Source: Sarea resinae (Eukaryota). Taken from it: a stretch of DNA of 64,000 nucleotides. Location: positions 1-64,000 of the forward strand of contig JAPEUD010000008.1 in the NCBI GenBank assembly GCA_026026165.1, given 5' to 3'. Each line of letters begins with the position of its first letter. Within the stretch, counting starts at the first letter, position 1. The notes below the pieces were generated by a model that worked only from the letters and a program-made list of their open reading frames with translations, did not search any database and was not told where the DNA came from. This document shows, piece after piece, positions 32,337-40,704 of the stretch. Both the position numbers and the translations under genes were made by a program.

Positions 32337-35300
32337 ATGGCTACTACTGCAGCATCGACGACTGCAATGGAAATCGCAAAGTAAGCTATGTGATGGTGGA
32401 CGATATCTGAGTAGCGGCTAATCAAAGCACCTCAGCTCTCTGACGCAAGATGAGATCCCAATCAAGTTGCGATGTGCCTGCTGCAACAAGTTGGCAATCA
32501 ACGCGTTTCGGCTGCCTTGTTGCGACCAGCTGATCTGTGAGAACTGTGAGCTCAACCTTCTACATTTCGCCATTGCTATACTTACCTTTGTGGTGAAAAG
32601 GTCAATCCTCTCTCCCTGTCAGTTGTCCGGTCTGTGAGCATTCCCCGATCTCGGCCGAGGACTGTAAGCCACACAAGGCTATGAGGACAACTATCAAGGT
32701 ATATCTCCGGACGAAAGAGAAGCAGAGGGAATCTGTCAAGCACGGCGAGCGATCGCAGGGCTCTGCCAAGCCATTACCCGCTCCGGCGTCTTCTTCGAAT
32801 GATCCTTCAACGACCACCACTGCTGTCGAACCGGTTGCCGCGAAAGAGGTGCCTATTCAGTCGCAGACACCTATCGATGATGCAAAGCCTAAAGATTCGG
32901 CACAAGACGTCATAGTCAATGGTGCTCAAGAATCAGAAGAAGCCCAGAAAGATATTCCTAGGCCTTCCATCGAGGTGAGTACAAGCGCACCCGCTTTCAT
33001 AGATAGTCCTAATTCAAAGTCTAGGCTACGGATGGAACTGTGGACCCAAATGCATCCGTAGTGTCTACAGCACCTGATGCGCAAATCTCAGAACCAAAAA
33101 ATGCGCAGGCTCATGCGTCTGAGGAGCAGAGTTCACGAGTGGGGCAAAAGCAAGAGCAAGGAGTGCAATGGAATCCGACTCAAATGCAAGCCGAGAACTT
33201 CAGTGGAGGATTTGCTTTCGATGGTTCTAATGGCGGATTTCCAAACATGGGATGGAACGGCCCTGGAGACTTCAACCAAATGATGCAAGGCATGCCAAAT
33301 GGGATGCAGAACAGTTGGGGCGGATTCCCAAATATGATGGGTGAGTCGCATCATGGTCTAGATATCTTGCTGCATAATTACTGACCCATATTGTTTCCTA
33401 GGTATGCCTGGGATGAATATGGATCCAACGGCCATGTCGCAGGGCATGTATGGAGGATTCGATGGTCAGGGAATGGGCATGAATGGGATGAGTATGGGAA
33501 TGGGCTACGGCGCTGGACAAGGCGGGTTTGGTGGTTGGGATGGGCAACCAGGCGCTTGGAGTGGAGGTCAAGATAAATTCATTCCAAATTCAAATGGTGG
33601 CCATGCCAGTGGTATGGGAAATGATTTTGGAGCTTTTGCTGGCTATCATCCCGGTGGTGGTTATAATCTGCAATCTCGCCACGATAATTTCAGTCAGATG
33701 CATCACCCGCAATACTCAAACAATAACTTCCAAAATAGCTTCAACGGACAAAGCTATCCTCCGAGAGATGATGGTTCCCGCCGACAGAGCACTGGCAATG
33801 GCGGCCAAATTCGAAATGCATCTGTCCACAATGTTGAGGGTAATGATGCAGCATTCTCTCATCAACTTCCAGTAGGTTTCGATTCTATTGATAGTACACA
33901 GCAGCTTGCACATGGAGGTGAACCAAATGCTATGCCGAAAGAGACAGAGAAGCAGCCAACGGAAGCCGATCAAAACCATATCTTCACTGGAGATGATGAA
34001 CAAGACACTGCGGGCTCGAACGTGGCAGATGCCCCAAATGCAAATACTGCACCTTCTCCTATGAATATAACCGGACAAGGCGTCCAGGAAGAAGAAGGGA
34101 AATCGATCATAGCAGAAGAAGCCGCCAAACCAGTACCTATTGAATCGGTCATGAATACGCCAGCGGCTCAGCTAAATGGGATCGATGCGCAATTTACAGC
34201 GCCTACGGGTACAATAGGAATGACACCACCGACGGGGCCGGCCATACCTCTAGGACCGGCGGGTTTCCATCACGCAGATACTCAGCCGTTCGGAGGTCGA
34301 GGGCGTGGCTTCACTCGTGGATACATCCGGGGCGGCTTTGACTATCGAGGTGGAATGCGTGGGCGTGGAGCTAGCTTTTTGCCAAATGGTAGTCTTATTG
34401 GTCCGCACGTGCCTCACTCAAACTTGCCTACTGACTTTCCGGGAGTTGTCCCTATAGCGCCGAAAGGTGTTGGTGTCGAAGGGGCGCCGAAGGCACCTAA
34501 AGCTCTAAGGGAGGGTCTTCCCAATACTGGACTTCGAGGTGGACGAGGAGCTTTCATGGCTGGTCGGGCCGGATTTCCCACCGCGATGCCACCGACTGGG
34601 CCAGCTGCGATGGCAACACCAGGCACGCCAGTCGCCCCAGCTGTTAAAGCTGCATCCACAGCACCGTCCGCGACCGTCAAGTCAAGGAGGTAAGTAAAAG
34701 ATTTTCCTGAATTGATTTAGATTCGGTCACTCATTCTGAGTAGTCGATCACCGGAAAAGCCGCGGTCCAAATCTCGATCTCGCACGCGATCTCGTTCCCC
34801 TGAACGGCGTCACCGCCATCAGCAGCATAATTCACCGAGCAGCTCAATCAATGATGATGAGCGAGAACGAAAACGAGAGAAACGGCATCATCGGTCAAAA
34901 AAGTATACCGACGGAGAAATAGAAAACGGTAAAGAGAGAATTGCTCGGTCCCGGTCCGCGTCTTCGTCTAGGCGATCTACCCATAACAGCCGCCATGACA
35001 AAGAACGGCATACCTCCCACAAGCATAGGTCTTCTCACCGCTCGCATCGAGACCGAAGTGGAGATCATTCTCGCCGAAGACGACGATCACGTTCGGCCGC
35101 GGATCGTCCTATCGCGGAGGATGCAAAACTAGAGAAGGAATACTCCAGCAGAAATCGCGATCGAGAGAAGAAGCGGTCTCAAAGAGCGCCATCTGACCTT
35201 TCTGATGAAGGCAGTGACCATGAACGCTCCTATCGATCCCGACGCAGTAAGCGCGAAAAGAGAGATTCGGAACGCACCAGGGAAAAAGAAAAGGAGAAAG

Positions 35301-35653
35301 ACAAAGCATGCCAGCCAGACAACCATACGCTGGAACGAGAAGCTCGGAACAGAGAGCGTTTGCTCAAAGAACAAGAACGGCGGCAATCTCTGAATCAGGA
35401 GCGGGAGCGTAAGGATAGGGAGAGGAAGCGAGGCCGAGACCCAGACGAAGGGGATGGCGACGATGTGAGGGGAGATGGGCACAGGAGTCGCAGAAATGGA
35501 ACGAAATCTAGTCTCAGTCGAAGAGATTCGGAGCGAGAAGAGCCTGGGGAGGGGAAGAGGAGGAGAGTGAGTTATAAATATGACGACGAAGAAAACGAGG
35601 AGGCAAGGGCTATCAGGGTTGAGAATGAGAGAGAAGCGGCGCGATGGGGTTAA
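32337..35653 (+). CDS. N-terminal RING-like Zn finger protein with GM/RGG-rich middle and RS/charged C-terminus (RNA-processing-like), multi-exon
   Basis: LRCACCNKLAINAFRLPCCDQLICENC|QSSLPVSCPVCEH, GVEGAPKAPKALREGLPN, RSRSRSR tail, ENEREAARWG*. Confidence 0.82.
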
Positions 35654-36246: not shown

Positions 36247-38352
36247 ATGAAGTACGTTCTAGTCTCTGGAGGTAATTTCATATTTAGGATTTCCATTAAA
36301 TGTCGTCCGTCACTAACCGCTTCGCAGGTGTCATCAGCGGCATTGGGAAGGGCGTTATCGGTATGCTGCACTCCGCATGAGATGATGCCATTATGACAGA
36401 GGAGCCGCCGATACTGATACGTTGATAGCCTCTTCTACCGGCTTGCTGCTTAAGACCATCGGATTAAAGATATGTCGCTTTTGAAACCCATCTTGGCCCA
36501 GGCTATGGTGCGCGCAGCATTGGCGGAGGAAGATATACTGACAGGCTTTGCACGTTTCTTCCATCAAGGTCGATCCTTACATGAACGTCGATGCTGGAAC
36601 TATGGCGCCCACCGAGTACGCTCAATTGCCAATGCATTTTCTTTGAATTCTTAAGCTGACCGGCCCCCGCAGACATGGGGAGGTCTTTGTGCTGGACGAT
36701 GGCGGTGAGGTGGACCTTGACCTGGGCAATTACGAGCGCTACCTCAATATCACCTTGACGAGGGAGAACAATATCACGACCGGCAAAATCTACCAGCATG
36801 TCATTGAGCGCGAACGTCGGGGTGACTATCTAGGTCGAACGGTGCAAGTCGTTCCACATCTTACGGATGCTATTCAAGATTGGATTGAGCGGGTTGCGAG
36901 GATACCTGTGGATGACACCAATGAGGAGCCAGATGTCTGTATCATTGAGTTGGGAGGTACCGTCGGAGATATCGAGAGTGCCCCCTTTATCGAAGCGATG
37001 CGGCAACTGAGACGAAGAGCGGGCAAGGACAATTTCCTGCAGATTCATGTTTCTCTCATTCCCGTCGTTGGAGGCGAGCAGAAGACCAAACCAACTCAAC
37101 AAGCCATCAAGGACGTTCGAAGTGCTGGTTTGAGTCCCGATCTGGTATGATTTACCATCCTTGCGCCAACTTGGCTGCTGAACAAGGACTGACTCTTCGC
37201 TCACAGATTGCTTGCCGGTGTATCAAACCGCTCGAGAAAACCACTACGGATAAGATCGCCATGTTCTGCCAGGTAGAACCCGAGCAGGTCGTCGCAGTCC
37301 ACGACGTTTCTTCCACCTATCACGTTCCCATGTTGCTCGAACGGCAGGGACTTATTGGTCTTCTACGTGACACTCTCAAGCTCGACAACGTCACAATCTC
37401 GCCCCATCTAGCCAAAAAGGGCCAGCTGATATGGAACGAGTGGCGAACACTCACCGGCGGCCAAGACCGCCTTTTCGAATCCGTCTCCATCGCCCTTGTA
37501 GGGAAGTACACCAACCTCCACGACTCGTACCTCAGTGTTATCAAATCCCTCGAGCACGCCGCTATGCGCTGCAACAAGAAGCTCGACCTGATCTGGGTCG
37601 ACGCCTCGCATCTCGAGCAGCAAACCGGCCAAGATAGCCCAGCAGACTACCACAAAGCCTGGCACGCGGTCTGCACGGCCAACGGCATCCTCGTTCCCGG
37701 CGGATTCGGTCACCGCGGTACAGAGGGCATGATCGCCGCCGCCAAATGGGCCCGCCAGAACAAAACCCCCTATCTGGGTATCTGTCTCGGCATGCAGATC
37801 GCCGTCATCGAGTTCGCGCGCAACGTCTGCAACATCCCGCACGCATCGTCGGTGGAGCTGTTCGAGCAGTGCCCAGATCCCGTCATCATATTCATGCCAG
37901 AGATCGACCGCACGACGCTCGGCGGTACGATGCGGCTCGGGCTGCGGCCGACTCTCTTCCAGCCGGGCTCGGAATGGTCCCGGCTGCGGGCGCTGTACGG
38001 TGAGGCGGGCGAGATCCTCGAGCGCCACCGTCATCGCTACGAGGTCAACCCGGAGTACATTGAGCGGCTCGGCAAGAGCGGCCTCGAGTTCATCGGCAAG
38101 GACGACAAGGGCGTCCGCATGGAGATCCTCGAGCTCAAGGATCACCCTTGGTACGTCGGCGTCCAGTTCCACCCCGAGTACCTGTCTCGCGTCTTGCAGC
38201 CGTCCAAGCCGTATCTGGGTTTCGTGGCCGCCAGTGCCGGCTGTCTTGATGAGGTCGTCAAGCGCAGCGTCGAGGAGGCTGAGAGGCTGGCTGCCAGTGG
38301 GTTGAGCGGTGAGGGTGGTCTGGTCAATGGCGTTGCTGGCGTGACTATCTAG
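36247..38352 (+). CDS. URA7: CTP synthase, 6 exons
   Basis: [94 protein letters not shown]. Confidence 0.97.
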
Positions 38353-39056
38353 AACAGAGACGTGAGACAGAAGAGGGGGAAGTAGAAGCAATCTGAGTAG
38401 AGGGGAGTGCAATGCAGTGAAGTGGAATAGAGTGTGTGGGCGAGCTTGGGTGTCCAGAATCGAAAAGACGCGCAGCCAGCCGCTGGGCGGAGAATCAAGA
38501 AGAGCGGACGGGGGCTCCGTGAAGGAAGGGTGTAGTGGTAGCGTGTCCACCCCTTCCATCCTCGCCGGAAATTCTCTTCTACGGTTTTCGAAATTTTTTT
38601 TTGTTTTTCTCATCTTCTGGGGTCAATCGTCCGAATTTTCTTCTTTTGCCCCTTTTTGGGTCTTGTTTCACAGATCCGATCTGGTTGTCGAGGCAGCTCT
38701 TCAACATCTTACCTTTGGTTCAATTTTTTCTTTTCTTTGGTGGGCGGTGGCGGGGGGTGGAAAGGGGGGCAGGGCGGCAGGGCGGGTCATGTACGTGTAG
38801 ATTGATTGGTATATCATTATGATAGACGGTACAGGATTGAGATAATGCAAGACAAGACAAGACGGCTTTATCAGAATTGAATGTTGAGCTCAGCCGAGGA
38901 ACTCTTGGCCCCCCTGGGAGGCGGGCGGGCGTGCTTTTCCACGAACCATACTAGCTAACGACCCATTTGACTGTCTGGCTATACTGAAATTGAAATGGCT
39001 GACTGACTGGCTGGCTGGCTAAATTGGCTGGCTAACTAGGACCAAGGTCGAGACAC

Positions 39057-39078
39057 GTGTGTGTGTGTGTGTGTGTGT
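39057..39078 (+). repeat. (GT)n microsatellite
   Basis: Directly visible. Confidence 0.9.
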
Positions 39079-39185
39079 ATGTGTTGAAGTGTGGACATGT
39101 AGAATGCGGAGAGAGACGAGATCGATCAGTCAATCAATCACCCAATCAACCAAATCAGCAATCAAGCAAACAATCAAGCAATCAA

Positions 39186-40704
39186 TCAGCACTGAAATGC
39201 CACGCCCTGCCTCTTAATCATGTTCTTGCCGCCGCCCGCGAAGCCGGTGCCCTCGGTGCTGAGCTCCACGAGGCCGGGCTTGATGTGCTCTTTCTCTTTC
39301 TGCTTTCCTTGATCCTTCTCGATGGAGGTCACCGTTTCGGCATTTTGGGGGTTCGTGTCTTTCGGGTTGGGGTTGGAGGAGGATTTGCGGCCACTGCTGA
39401 GGTCCGCGGCGCAGACGTAGCATCTTAGAGGTGGTGGTGGGAGGGGCGAGTGGGACGGGTTGCTGGGGGAGGAGGACGAGGAGGAGGTGTGGGGATCGTG
39501 CGGATCGTGCGGGTTGTGAGAGGGCGGGGTCATGAATTGCGTTACGCAGGGCTTGCAGAGGACGTGACCGCATGGTTTGGCGACTGATTGTTTTTCGGAG
39601 GGGTTAGCCGGCTGAGGCAGGGGTGTGGCATTTTCGTTACACACAGAAGACGGAAGAAAGAAAGAAAGAAAGGTACGAGTGAGTGGTAAGGGGTGAAGGC
39701 CAAGGGGAAGGGGAGGGCTGGAGAGGGAGGAAAAGCTTACGCATCGCTTTCGAGCTGTTGCTCAGCGTCTTCCTGCAACTCGGACAGATCCGGGCCGTGG
39801 GCTCGCCCGTCTTCGGGTCTTTTTCCTCGGTGAAGTGCACGGTGACGAGCGTCTTGAGGGAGTAGGCGTGTGGGTTTGTGGCTGTGGATCCAGGGCATGT
39901 GGGGTGCAGTTTTTGCTTTTCCGATGCTGGTTTATTGGTGTTGGAGGTTGTGGGGGTGAGGGAGGGGACCCAGAAGGAGGGGAGCGATGTGCGGGTTGCT
40001 TCGTTCTGGAGGGGGTTTTGTTAGTACTGGAAAAGGAAGCAGTGTGAAGGTTCTCTTGATAGATATCTGGAGAAGTCGTACCTTTTCCTCATCGAGAGCT
40101 TTCCTAGCTTTCCCTCTCTCCTCTCTCGCGATCCGTAGAAGCTCATCCTCATCGAGCTCGAATTTCCTCTTGGTCCCCCTCTTCCCGGCCTCGTTCCCTT
40201 CCTCCTCGATCTCCTCGACAACCACCTTGCCGCCCTCGCGACCAACGACCCTCTTCCCCTTGCCCAGACTGACCTCCAAGCCCATCTGCACCCGCTCGAA
40301 TTCATCCAAGGCCCGTCTCGCGGCCTCCTCCTCGTCGACCTTGTCCGCCTCCGCCTCTTCCGCCTTCTTCCGCTCGGCCTCTTTCTCGAGTCGTTTGATC
40401 TCCTTGCGTTGCGCCAGGAGATTCGACACGGCGCATTCGCGGCAGAAGATGTCGCCGTTGGTGGCGCATGCCACGACGGGTGCGCGCGACGGCAGCAGAC
40501 ATAGCCGGCACGAGGCGAATGGGAGGAAGGATTCGCGCGTGAGCCGCGTCGATTGGGAGCCCCAGTGGGATTTCAGCTGGGAGCGCTCGTGCGAGGTGAA
40601 GAAAGCGAGGGAGGTGTTGCGTTTGCCTGGCGAGGTGAGAAGGGGGGATGCGATGGGGAGAGGGGAGAGGAGACGGGTCGATTGAGGCACTTACTGTGAG
40701 ACAT
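39186..40704 (-). CDS. NOSIP-like RING/U-box protein, 4 exons
   Basis: [86 protein letters not shown]. Confidence 0.88.

Follow-up and report, generated by a model that had tools for sequence, protein, structure and literature searches.

A probable AT-AC intron with U2-type splice signals in the CTP synthase gene of Sarea resinae and its conservation across fungal classes

Analysis of the gene structure, of orthologous DNA and of predicted fungal proteins indicated that positions 36470-36553 of the 64-kb stretch of DNA analysed in this study (the window) are very probably a genuine, constitutively removed intron of the CTP synthase gene, which has AT-AC ends and would be excised by the major (U1/U2/U4/U5/U6) spliceosome. 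Judged by its sequence, this intron, the third of the gene, is a deeply conserved addition to the known U2-type "AT-AC II" class.

Structure of the CTP synthase gene and of intron 3

Sarea resinae belongs to the Pezizomycotina. The CTP synthase gene in the window was modelled with six exons, which encode 592 aa in an intact frame without a stop codon. The exons, the introns and the signals of intron 3 are as follows.

36247..36271, + strand, exon 1: MKYVLVSG and the first base of G9; gene model, N-terminus in agreement with homologues
36272..36327, + strand, intron 1: GT-AG, 56 nt, GTAATT...CACTAAC...CAG
36328..36360, + strand, exon 2: 11 residues and the first base of A20; gene model
36361..36428, + strand, intron 2: GT-AG, 68 nt, GTATGC...ACTGAT...TAG
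36429..36469, + strand, exon 3: 14 residues, last codon AAG; gene model
36470..36553, + strand, intron 3, the putative AT-AC intron: 84 nt, between codons K33 and V34
36470..36475, + strand, 5' splice site of intron 3: ATATGT after exonic AAG, resembling GTATGT except for the A at +1
36536..36542, + strand, candidate branch-site motif of intron 3: TACTGAC, presumed branch A at 36541
36550..36553, + strand, 3' splice site of intron 3: GCAC, with YAC instead of YAG
36554..36615, + strand, exon 4: 20 residues and the first two bases of E54; gene model
36616..36672, + strand, intron 4: GT-AG, 57 nt, GTACGC...GCTGAC...CAG
36673..37144, + strand, exon 5; gene model
37145..37206, + strand, intron 5: GT-AG, 62 nt, GTATGA...ACTGAC...CAG
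37207..38352, + strand, exon 6 including the stop codon: glutamine amidotransferase half; gene model

An earlier note on this DNA had proposed an AT-AC intron at this place, and its description of the sequence was confirmed in each particular. Exon 3 ends with ATC GGA TTA AAG (IGLK) at 36469, and the conserved frame resumes at 36554 with GTT TCT TCC ATC AAG GTC GAT CCT TAC (VSSIKVDPY). The 84 nt between them start with ATATGT and end with TTTGCAC (AT at 36470-71, AC at 36552-53), and the TACTGAC motif at 36536-36542 places the presumed branch A 12 nt upstream of the final base of the intron. If the intron is retained, ICRF is added and then a TGA as the fifth codon, and the GT at 36474 shifts the frame when joined with the AG at 36543-44 or at 36567-68, both as the earlier note had stated. 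An exhaustive scan of 36433-36612 found no GT/GC-AG intron of at least 36 nt that keeps the frame and is free of stops. Stepwise or nested splicing via canonical sites was likewise rejected as a candidate, since the exon has no GT at its end or upstream of it, and the frame is not restored by any canonical pair.

The window contained a single copy of the motif ATAWGT..CTRAC..YAC, compared with an average of 2.0 copies over 50 shuffled sequences, so that the bare motif is not above chance and was discarded as an argument in itself. The significance of the intron derives instead from its exact position between two conserved codons, together with the AT-AC ends of all seven orthologous introns described below.

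Protein comparisons agreed with this model. The deposited protein of this gene, P0001, matched the N-terminal synthetase and C-terminal class-I glutamine amidotransferase domains in the Pfam search (PF06418, 363.6 bits; PF00117, 129.2 bits), its sequence is identical to the product of exon 6 (100% over 381 aa), and it equals the AT-AC gene model everywhere except at residues 20-38. Over residues 1-80, the AT-AC model is identical at 79 of 80 positions, without gaps, to a correctly modelled homologue, P0053. When this homologue was used as the query against solved structures, it matched yeast and human CTP synthases with E-values down to 3.6e-236; the alignment to the solved yeast enzymes is gapless across the K|V junction, and homologues likewise have no insertion there. 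Exon 4 aligned without gaps both to homologues and to solved CTP synthases.

Conservation of intron 3 in orthologous DNA and predicted proteins

Related loci were found with exon 5 as the query, and seven fungal metagenome loci (L001-L004 and L006-L008) had an intron at the K|V codon boundary. The comparison of orthologues for which the earlier note had asked found AT-AC ends in all eight sequences (the window and the seven loci). The orthologous introns are 52-69 nt long, compared with 84 nt in the window, and their interiors could not be aligned; the invariant columns of the eight-sequence alignment are solely ATA.GT, CTGAC and the final AC. The donor is ATATGT in six sequences and ATAAGT in two, with G at +5 and T at +6 in every one, while the branch motif CTGAC is present in 8/8 and the 3' end is GCAC in seven and CTAC in one. 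In the same genes, introns 1, 2 and 4 have GT-AG ends throughout, with GTAWGT-like donors, and intron 1 lies at the same place, with GT-AG ends, in all six other loci that cover its site. In seven of the eight AT-AC introns the presumed branch A lies 12 nt from the last intron base, and in the remaining one 9 nt. This spacing falls inside the range of the neighbouring GT-AG introns, where it is mostly 9-17 nt and clusters at 11 (one uncertain case, 29), and a fixed 12-nt spacing was therefore not retained as a special feature.

Across exon 3 and the first 17 codons of exon 4 (30 codons in seven sequences), variable columns numbered 6, 0 and 24 at the first, second and third codon positions, and only three amino-acid columns varied, a pattern of clear coding constraint on the exons flanking the AT-AC intron. 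Retention of the intron leads to a stop or a frameshift in 8/8 sequences. The K|V boundary is also present in 62 further loci, all without an intron at that place, including five fungal-like loci with 68-80% identity (L009, L010, L011, L013 and L018).

The earlier note had also expected gene predictors to mis-model this gene, and that expectation was borne out by a sample of 157 fungal CTP synthases of at least 480 aa. Sixty-five of these predictions are wrong at or upstream of the K|V junction, among them P0001 with its residues 20-38, the typical errors being a truncated N-terminus or a scrambled stretch beside the conserved GIGKG motif. In the 28 predictions that extend into intron sequence, K is followed by I (12) or M (1) in 13/13 and V is preceded by H (20) or Y (2) in 22/22, which fits intron ends of the form AT...YAC, with the qualification that an H or Y at this place determines no more than ..A[C/T] and that some predictions jump inside the intron. 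The 92 correct proteins are compatible with AT-AC, GT-AG or no intron in their genes, and reversions may therefore exist unseen among them. The species span eight classes, namely Sareomycetes, Pezizomycetes, Dothideomycetes, Eurotiomycetes, Lecanoromycetes, Lichinomycetes, Geoglossomycetes and Leotiomycetes; the Sordariomycetes sample comprised only three Xylariales proteins, correctly modelled. CTP synthase is often used as a housekeeping marker, and pipelines that forbid AT-AC introns will go on mis-modelling it.

Indirect evidence at the RNA level came from other species, in which full-length, uninterrupted proteins with a correct K|V junction were found on contigs too short for introns, as judged solely by protein length against contig span. 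Examples of such cDNA-like contigs are those encoding P0033, with 614 aa on a contig of 2112 nt, and P0137, with 606 aa on one of 1997 nt. P0033 shares 94.5% identity over the last 400 aa with P0020 of Cadophora sp. M221, a genomic prediction that reads into the AT...AC intron.

Spliceosome type, proposed mechanism and alternative explanations

U12-type AT-AC introns are defined by a /ATATCCTT donor and a TCCTTRAC branch. Neither an ATATCC donor ([AG]TATCC start) nor a U12 branch (CCTTRAC, CCTTRAY or TCCTTRA) was found in any of the eight intron sequences, in accordance with the earlier classification of the signals as U2-type. The Rfam search of the window gave no matches, 64 kb being a weak test for minor snRNAs. 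Surveys of the Ascomycota, in the available parts of their text, describe no convincing minor introns or snRNAs (PMC10639083; PMC2846911), and from this published absence and the motifs we infer that the intron probably depends on the major snRNAs and not on U11/U12/U4atac/U6atac.

Established splicing biochemistry suggests how such an intron could be removed. Apart from +1, the donor AAG|ATATGT would retain the U1 and U6 pairing positions of the fungal GTATGT/GTAAGT consensus, and U2 would pair with the perfect branch motif TACTGAC. The A at the first base and the C at the last base may then form a compensating non-Watson-Crick pair in place of the usual G-G pair, so that the second splicing step works and AAG is joined to GTT to give ...IGLK|VSSIK.... 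The intron would be at least as old as the common ancestor of Pezizomycetes and leotiomyceta. The unusual ends would most simply have been kept because a change at a single end (G...C or A...G) would cripple splicing. The CTP synthase gene is expected to be essential; since the mutation of either end alone would break its splicing, the deep conservation of AT-AC would need no regulatory role, and the mutual dependence of the two ends may account for it equally well. The practical consequence is a widespread mis-annotation of the CTP synthase gene.

Several other explanations were weighed against removal of a true AT-AC intron by the major spliceosome. It is hardly credible that the deposited GT-AG-only model P0001 is right, with exon 3 skipped and about 36470-36507 exonic; this pipeline output has the merit of using canonical splice sites only and departs from the AT-AC model at residues 20-38 only, but there it drops 19 residues that are near-invariant in fungi and gapless in solved yeast structures, substitutes 13 residues from sequence that is unconserved in every orthologous locus, and skips an exon under clear coding constraint (6/0/24). 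An assembly or sequencing error at the ends, or a dead copy of the gene, is virtually inconceivable: the best database match is labelled a metagenome-assembled genome, yet both non-canonical ends recur in seven independent contigs, AT-AC ends are implied by 28 predictions from other species, and the gene otherwise has an unbroken open frame of 592 codons. The AT-AC ends and the 12-nt branch-to-3' distance might suggest that the fungus has kept a minor spliceosome, which would excise the intron as a U12-type one. That reading is highly improbable and close to refuted by donors that are ATATGT or ATAAGT (ATATCC 0/8), by a branch of the form xxxCTGAC (TCCTTRAC 0/8), and by the published surveys of Ascomycota (PMC10639083; PMC2846911, as available), with the Rfam result adding the weak test of a 64-kb window.

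The intron might alternatively be a fossil, a former U12-type AT-AC intron that switched to the major spliceosome when the minor one was lost in the Dikarya. U12-type introns typically have such ends, and the 12-nt branch-to-3' distance lies within their range and was counted in favour of this idea; passages of PMC1557818 also call AT-AC II introns a possible relic class. It is nevertheless very unlikely, as no U12 motif is left in any of the eight sequences and 62 other loci containing the boundary, five fungal-like ones among them, have no intron there, so that the intron looks like a Pezizomycotina-specific gain after the loss of the minor spliceosome; a literature search on CTPS2 and minor introns returned nothing relevant in the text available. 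The earlier note had tentatively proposed that the splice limits the rate or is regulated. Retention of the AT-AC ends for slow or conditional splicing, probably at the second step, which would limit or regulate CTP synthase under, for example, pyrimidine or nutrient stress, is also unlikely. Such a role would agree with the persistence of the AT-AC state across eight fungal classes, with a stop or frameshift upon retention in 8/8 sequences (the in-frame TGA would make retained transcripts unproductive), and with a rescue of A(+1) by a last-base C that is described as less efficient than the wild type (PMC1557818, in the part available). However, conservation would be expected anyway, as a single reversion would leave a presumably essential gene with mismatched intron ends, the intron has no conserved element besides the three splice signals, and the auxiliary signals come close to the consensus (exonic AAG next to the donor, G+5, T+6 and CTGAC in 8/8), which looks like compensation for efficiency and not like the tuning of a weakness. 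In a broader form, the proposal that the AT-AC pair is maintained via a slow second catalytic step, making CTP synthase sensitive to the state of the spliceosome or of nutrients, or that this is the last U12-type fossil in the Dikarya using U2-type signals, appears quite unlikely.

Comparison with known AT-AC introns

U2-type AT-AC II introns are described in the animal genes SCN4A, SCN5A and TAF2 (Sheth et al. 2006, PMC1557818, in part). Both the animal introns and the CTP synthase intron have AT and AC ends with a donor otherwise of the major-spliceosome consensus, which is a strong /ATAAGT in the animal introns according to passages of PMC5029451 and either ATAAGT or ATATGT in CTP synthase; in both, the ends are preserved long-term in orthologues, and the class is extremely rare. 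Unlike its animal counterparts, the CTP synthase intron occurs in a fungal lineage without a minor spliceosome. It measures only 52-84 nt, and its CTGAC branch, of the fungal kind, lies 9-12 nt from the 3' end. Removal by U1/U2 is experimentally established for SCN4A and SCN5A and predicted for CTP synthase.

Rescue of a +1 G-to-A change by a last-base G-to-C change is reported for yeast and human (PMC1557818), and an engineered AT-AC intron is reported to splice in yeast (PMC5029451). These A(+1)/C(last) double mutants, made in yeast and human introns by Parker and Siliciano 1993 and by others whom the available text of both sources cites, differ from a normal U2-type intron in having the first G changed to A and the last G to C; the mechanism proposed above for the CTP synthase intron follows from this same pair of changes. 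The engineered mutants are laboratory-made and spliced with reduced efficiency, whereas the CTP synthase intron is natural, lies in a housekeeping gene and is found in eight classes. It may thus serve as an old natural example of an A(+1)-C(last) compensating pair in the major spliceosome, and as a natural test case for splicing chemistry in a clade with no minor spliceosome to confuse the picture, for instance in studies of the second-step choice of a 3' AC. The state of the intron (AT-AC, GT-AG or lost) could also be scored across the Pezizomycotina as a rare genomic change and phylogenetic character.

Filamentous ascomycetes provide a low-frequency Pezizomycotina precedent, but in genes different from CTP synthase. 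In the portions of these papers that were available, AT-AC splicing was confirmed by sequencing in Fusarium graminearum FGSG_10073 and FGSG_08743 (PMC3577648), Trichoderma longibrachiatum had AT-AC at 69 of 14305 junctions (PMC4324775), AT-AC introns made up 0.03% of introns in SnowyOwl gene models (PMC4084796), and those of xylanase genes were 'hypothesized' (PMC1557818). The two F. graminearum genes were considered as possible CTP synthases and rejected on the lengths given there, 786 nt and 210 nt respectively (PMC3577648). No conservation across classes and no CTP synthase case was found in the available text of these accounts, a search of the literature on FGSG_10073 by name found none, and searches pairing AT-AC with CTP synthase and with Pezizomycotina found, in the text they returned, no account of the CTP synthase intron.

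U12-type AT-AC introns share the AT-AC dinucleotides and the short branch-to-3' distance with the CTP synthase intron. Their /ATATCCTT donor and TCCTTRAC branch are absent from 8/8 CTP synthase introns, only the spacing being a fit, and they need machinery reported absent from the host phylum in the available survey text (PMC10639083; PMC2846911). In Saccharomyces cerevisiae, a nested AT-AC intron of RPL30 is spliced in about 1-2% of transcripts according to passages of PMC5029451, and this case resembles the CTP synthase intron in that an ascomycete lacking the minor spliceosome carries out AT-AC splicing. The RPL30 donor is described there as unlike the U2-type AT-AC consensus and the splice as dispensable for the protein, whereas the CTP synthase intron has consensus-like signals and its removal is required for the enzyme.

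Gene model and third intron of CTP synthase

A stop-free CTP synthase of 592 residues was obtained when the following six exons were joined.

Exons of the CTP synthase gene model
36247-36271, + strand, exon 1
36328-36360, + strand, exon 2
36429-36469, + strand, exon 3
36554-36615, + strand, exon 4
36673-37144, + strand, exon 5
37207-38352, + strand, exon 6

Introns 1, 2, 4 and 5 are of the ordinary short fungal type (GT...CTRAY...YAG, 56-68 nt), and intron 3 is the exception. Exon 3 ends with ...ATC GGA TTA AAG at 36469 (+ strand) and the conserved frame restarts at 36554 with GTT TCT TCC ATC AAG GTC GAT CCT TAC, while the intervening 84 nt start with ATATGT, end with TTTGCAC and contain a TACTGAC branch motif at 36536-36542, all as described in an earlier note made from the sequence alone. 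That note was also right that the GT at 36474 joined to either downstream AG shifts the frame, and that retention ends in a stop, with read-through translation giving ICRF directly followed by TGA. The AG at 36543-44 is presumably too near the branch A for acceptor use, because it lies only 2-3 nt past it. When 36433-36612 was scanned exhaustively, not one GT-AG or GC-AG intron of at least 36 nt kept the frame open; the note had named such a junction, if seen in cDNA, as contradicting its reading.

The last exon was 100% identical to P0001, the deposited model for this gene found by database search (586 aa, 'MAG: CTP synthase ura7 [Sarea resinae]'), which is covered by both Pfam CTP_synth_N and GATase. 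Residues 20-38 were the sole difference between P0001 and the AT-AC gene model; there the predictor left out exon 3 and took a piece of intron 3 as exon, the kind of mis-modelling that had been anticipated. The AT-AC gene model matched the correctly modelled homologue P0053 without gaps at 79/80 N-terminal residues, and P0053 aligned gaplessly with solved yeast CTP synthases (e.g. 7rmc) across ...LKT.GLKV.SIK.DPY...

Orthologous introns and their splice signals

Metagenome contigs scanned with exon 5 yielded 80 loci, 69 of which contained the exon-4 motif. Precisely at the boundary of the K and V codons, an intron was present in seven of these 69 (L001, L002, L003, L004, L006, L007 and L008; 87-97% identity in exon 5) and in none of the other 62, which include five fungal-like loci of 68-80% identity (L009, L010, L011, L013 and L018). 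Conservation in orthologues, a point raised in the earlier note, was borne out by AT-AC ends in 7/7 of these introns and in 8/8 including the window, eight sequences representing approximately six independent lineages because L001/L003 and L007/L008 are close pairs. Introns 1, 2 and 4 of the same loci are GT-AG wherever present. Variable columns in the flanking exons (30 codons, seven sequences) numbered 6/0/24 by codon position, with three variable amino-acid columns, which shows that the sequence flanking intron 3 is under coding constraint.

The donor of intron 3 departs from the fungal GTATGT/GTAAGT consensus only by its A at +1, and its branch site follows the fungal CTRAC consensus. Among the eight AT-AC introns (52-84 nt, with unalignable interiors), the donor was ATATGT in six and ATAAGT in two, the branch CTGAC in all, and the last four bases GCAC in seven and CTAC in one; the invariant columns of the MAFFT alignment were ATA.GT, CTGAC and the terminal AC only. 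The U12-type donor ATATCC and the CCTTRAC branch were found in 0/8, in agreement with the proposal that the signals are U2-type (major spliceosome) rather than U12-type (minor spliceosome). The branch-to-3' distance (12 nt in 7/8, 9 nt in 1/8) falls within the spread seen in the GT-AG neighbours (mostly 9-17 nt, mode 11). All eight have T at +6 as well as CTGAC, and 18 neighbouring GT-AG introns have varied donors and branch motifs; the auxiliary signals of the AT-AC introns are nearer consensus, a comparison that, given the relatedness of the sequences, serves as description only. Rfam gave no match in the 64-kb window, and published surveys of Ascomycota contain no convincing evidence of minor introns or snRNAs (PMC10639083; PMC2846911).

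Three local comparisons were also made. The 56-nt AT-AC introns L007:33-88 and L008:1824-1879, on separate metagenome contigs, are identical but for +4 (ATATGT vs ATAAGT); as both forms fit the fungal donor consensus, either A or T is apparently tolerated at +4, with A retained at +1. L002:1710-1949 has kept the AT-AC intron, but its second intron occupies a different position, within the GIGKG codons, and it lacks intron 4; relocation or loss has thus affected neighbouring GT-AG introns and spared the AT-AC intron. The last 16 nt (CTGACAGGCTTTGCAC) are the same in the window (36536-36553) and L001:1864-1879 and differ by one base in L003:1860-1875, against an otherwise unalignable intron and ~23% difference at synonymous exon sites, and the branch-to-3' segment may be under extra constraint in this sub-lineage.

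Proposed mutual dependence of the two ends and known AT-AC introns

U1 and U6 could pair with AAG/AUAUGU everywhere except +1, UACUGAC would pair with U2, and the second splicing step requires the first intron base to interact with the last. The compensatory terminal change invoked in the earlier note is documented in PMC1557818: in U2-type introns of yeast and human, G-to-C at the final position rescues G-to-A at +1, 'although less efficiently'; an engineered AT-AC intron splices in yeast, as cited in PMC5029451. If one end reverted by itself, the two would no longer match, in a gene that is presumably essential, and the AT-AC state would be locked unless the entire intron were lost; this mutual dependence of the two ends would also explain its conservation. 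No conserved element apart from the splice signals was found in the alignment of the eight introns, and the analysis brought out no sign of the rate-limiting or regulated splice that the note had considered possible. Candidate origins are a GT-AG ancestor that underwent compensation or a converted U12-type intron; in our sample the site is intronless outside Pezizomycotina, which argues against a U12 relic.

U2-type 'AT-AC II' introns are known but very rare, with 24 in five model genomes and experimentally shown cases in SCN4A and SCN5A (PMC1557818). According to the fungal literature, filamentous ascomycete RNA-seq contains AT-AC junctions (PMC4324775; PMC4084796), AT-AC is a minor class in an annotation survey (PMC7072748), and two cases are listed in Fusarium graminearum, where some non-canonical sites were Sanger-confirmed (PMC3577648); these two genes, 786 and 210 nt long, are therefore not CTP synthase. 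A search that mostly covered journals outside subscription found no report of an AT-AC intron in CTP synthase, nor of one conserved across classes of Pezizomycotina. We rate the CTP synthase intron as what appears to be an unusually old and well-supported addition to the AT-AC II class.

Protein predictions, taxonomic spread and neighbouring frames

Homologue searches returned 210 proteins, of which 157 of at least 480 residues were used and 53 shorter ones, mostly last-exon fragments, were dropped.

The K/V junction in 157 CTP synthase proteins
Correct junction: 92/157; the gene may have an AT-AC, a GT-AG or no intron
Wrong, intron read-in: 28/157; after K, I 12 and M 1 (13/13); before V, H 20 and Y 2 (22/22)
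Wrong, uninformative: 37/157; 13 begin MN[VI]DAGTM and 9 begin MAPTEH; in some, truncation may have another cause

A GT intron start would encode V, and an AG end K, E or Q. The read-in residues fit those encoded by AT... and ...YA[C/T], although as indirect evidence, since they leave the last codon's third base undefined and a predictor may skip part of the intron. Phylliscum P0193 retains an apparent whole in-frame intron (ICLVSAHDDGHWPRRH), the first two codons of which are compatible with ATATGT.

Species with read-in proteins (taxonomy look-up)
Pezizomycetes: Rhizina, Trichophaea
Dothideomycetes: Kalmusia
Eurotiomycetes: Ophidiomyces, Exophiala dermatitidis
Lecanoromycetes: Lasallia
Lichinomycetes: Phylliscum
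Geoglossomycetes: Glutinoglossum
Leotiomycetes: Lachnellula

With Sarea resinae (Sareomycetes, Pezizomycotina; taxonomy look-up), eight classes on either side of the Pezizomycetes/leotiomyceta split are represented, from which we infer that the AT-AC intron was probably already in their common ancestor; this distribution draws on mispredicted proteins beyond the eight DNA sequences, and Sordariomycetes, Orbiliomycetes and Eurotiales lie outside the placed set.

Indirect support at the RNA level comes from several full-length proteins with the correct junction, among them P0033 (614 aa/2112 nt), P0137 (606 aa/1997 nt) and P0150 (577 aa/1946 nt), whose contigs are too short for the introns; the simplest account of these contigs is that they are spliced transcripts. 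In their last 400 residues, P0032 and P0033 are 94.5% identical to Cadophora sp. M221 P0020, a genomic prediction reading LK-INY-VSSIK, and genomic locus L004, with the AT-AC intron, is ~97% identical to Cadophora malorum P0029. Full-length CTP synthases on ~2 kb contigs, all with the correct junction, include these three, P0135, P0141 and others; the contigs are probably assembled transcripts and would offer ready-made RNA evidence if matched to genomes.

A 310-codon open frame (34721-35653, + strand) that closely precedes the CTP synthase gene encodes an extremely R/S/E/K/D-rich product with RS/RD/RE repeats, which had no Pfam match at E <= 0.01 and whose composition resembles an arginine/serine-rich, splicing-factor-like tail. 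A downstream open frame (39186-39761, - strand) has weak RING-finger matches below the Pfam cut-offs (best E 0.0011) and adjoins a (GT)n microsatellite at ~39056-39082.
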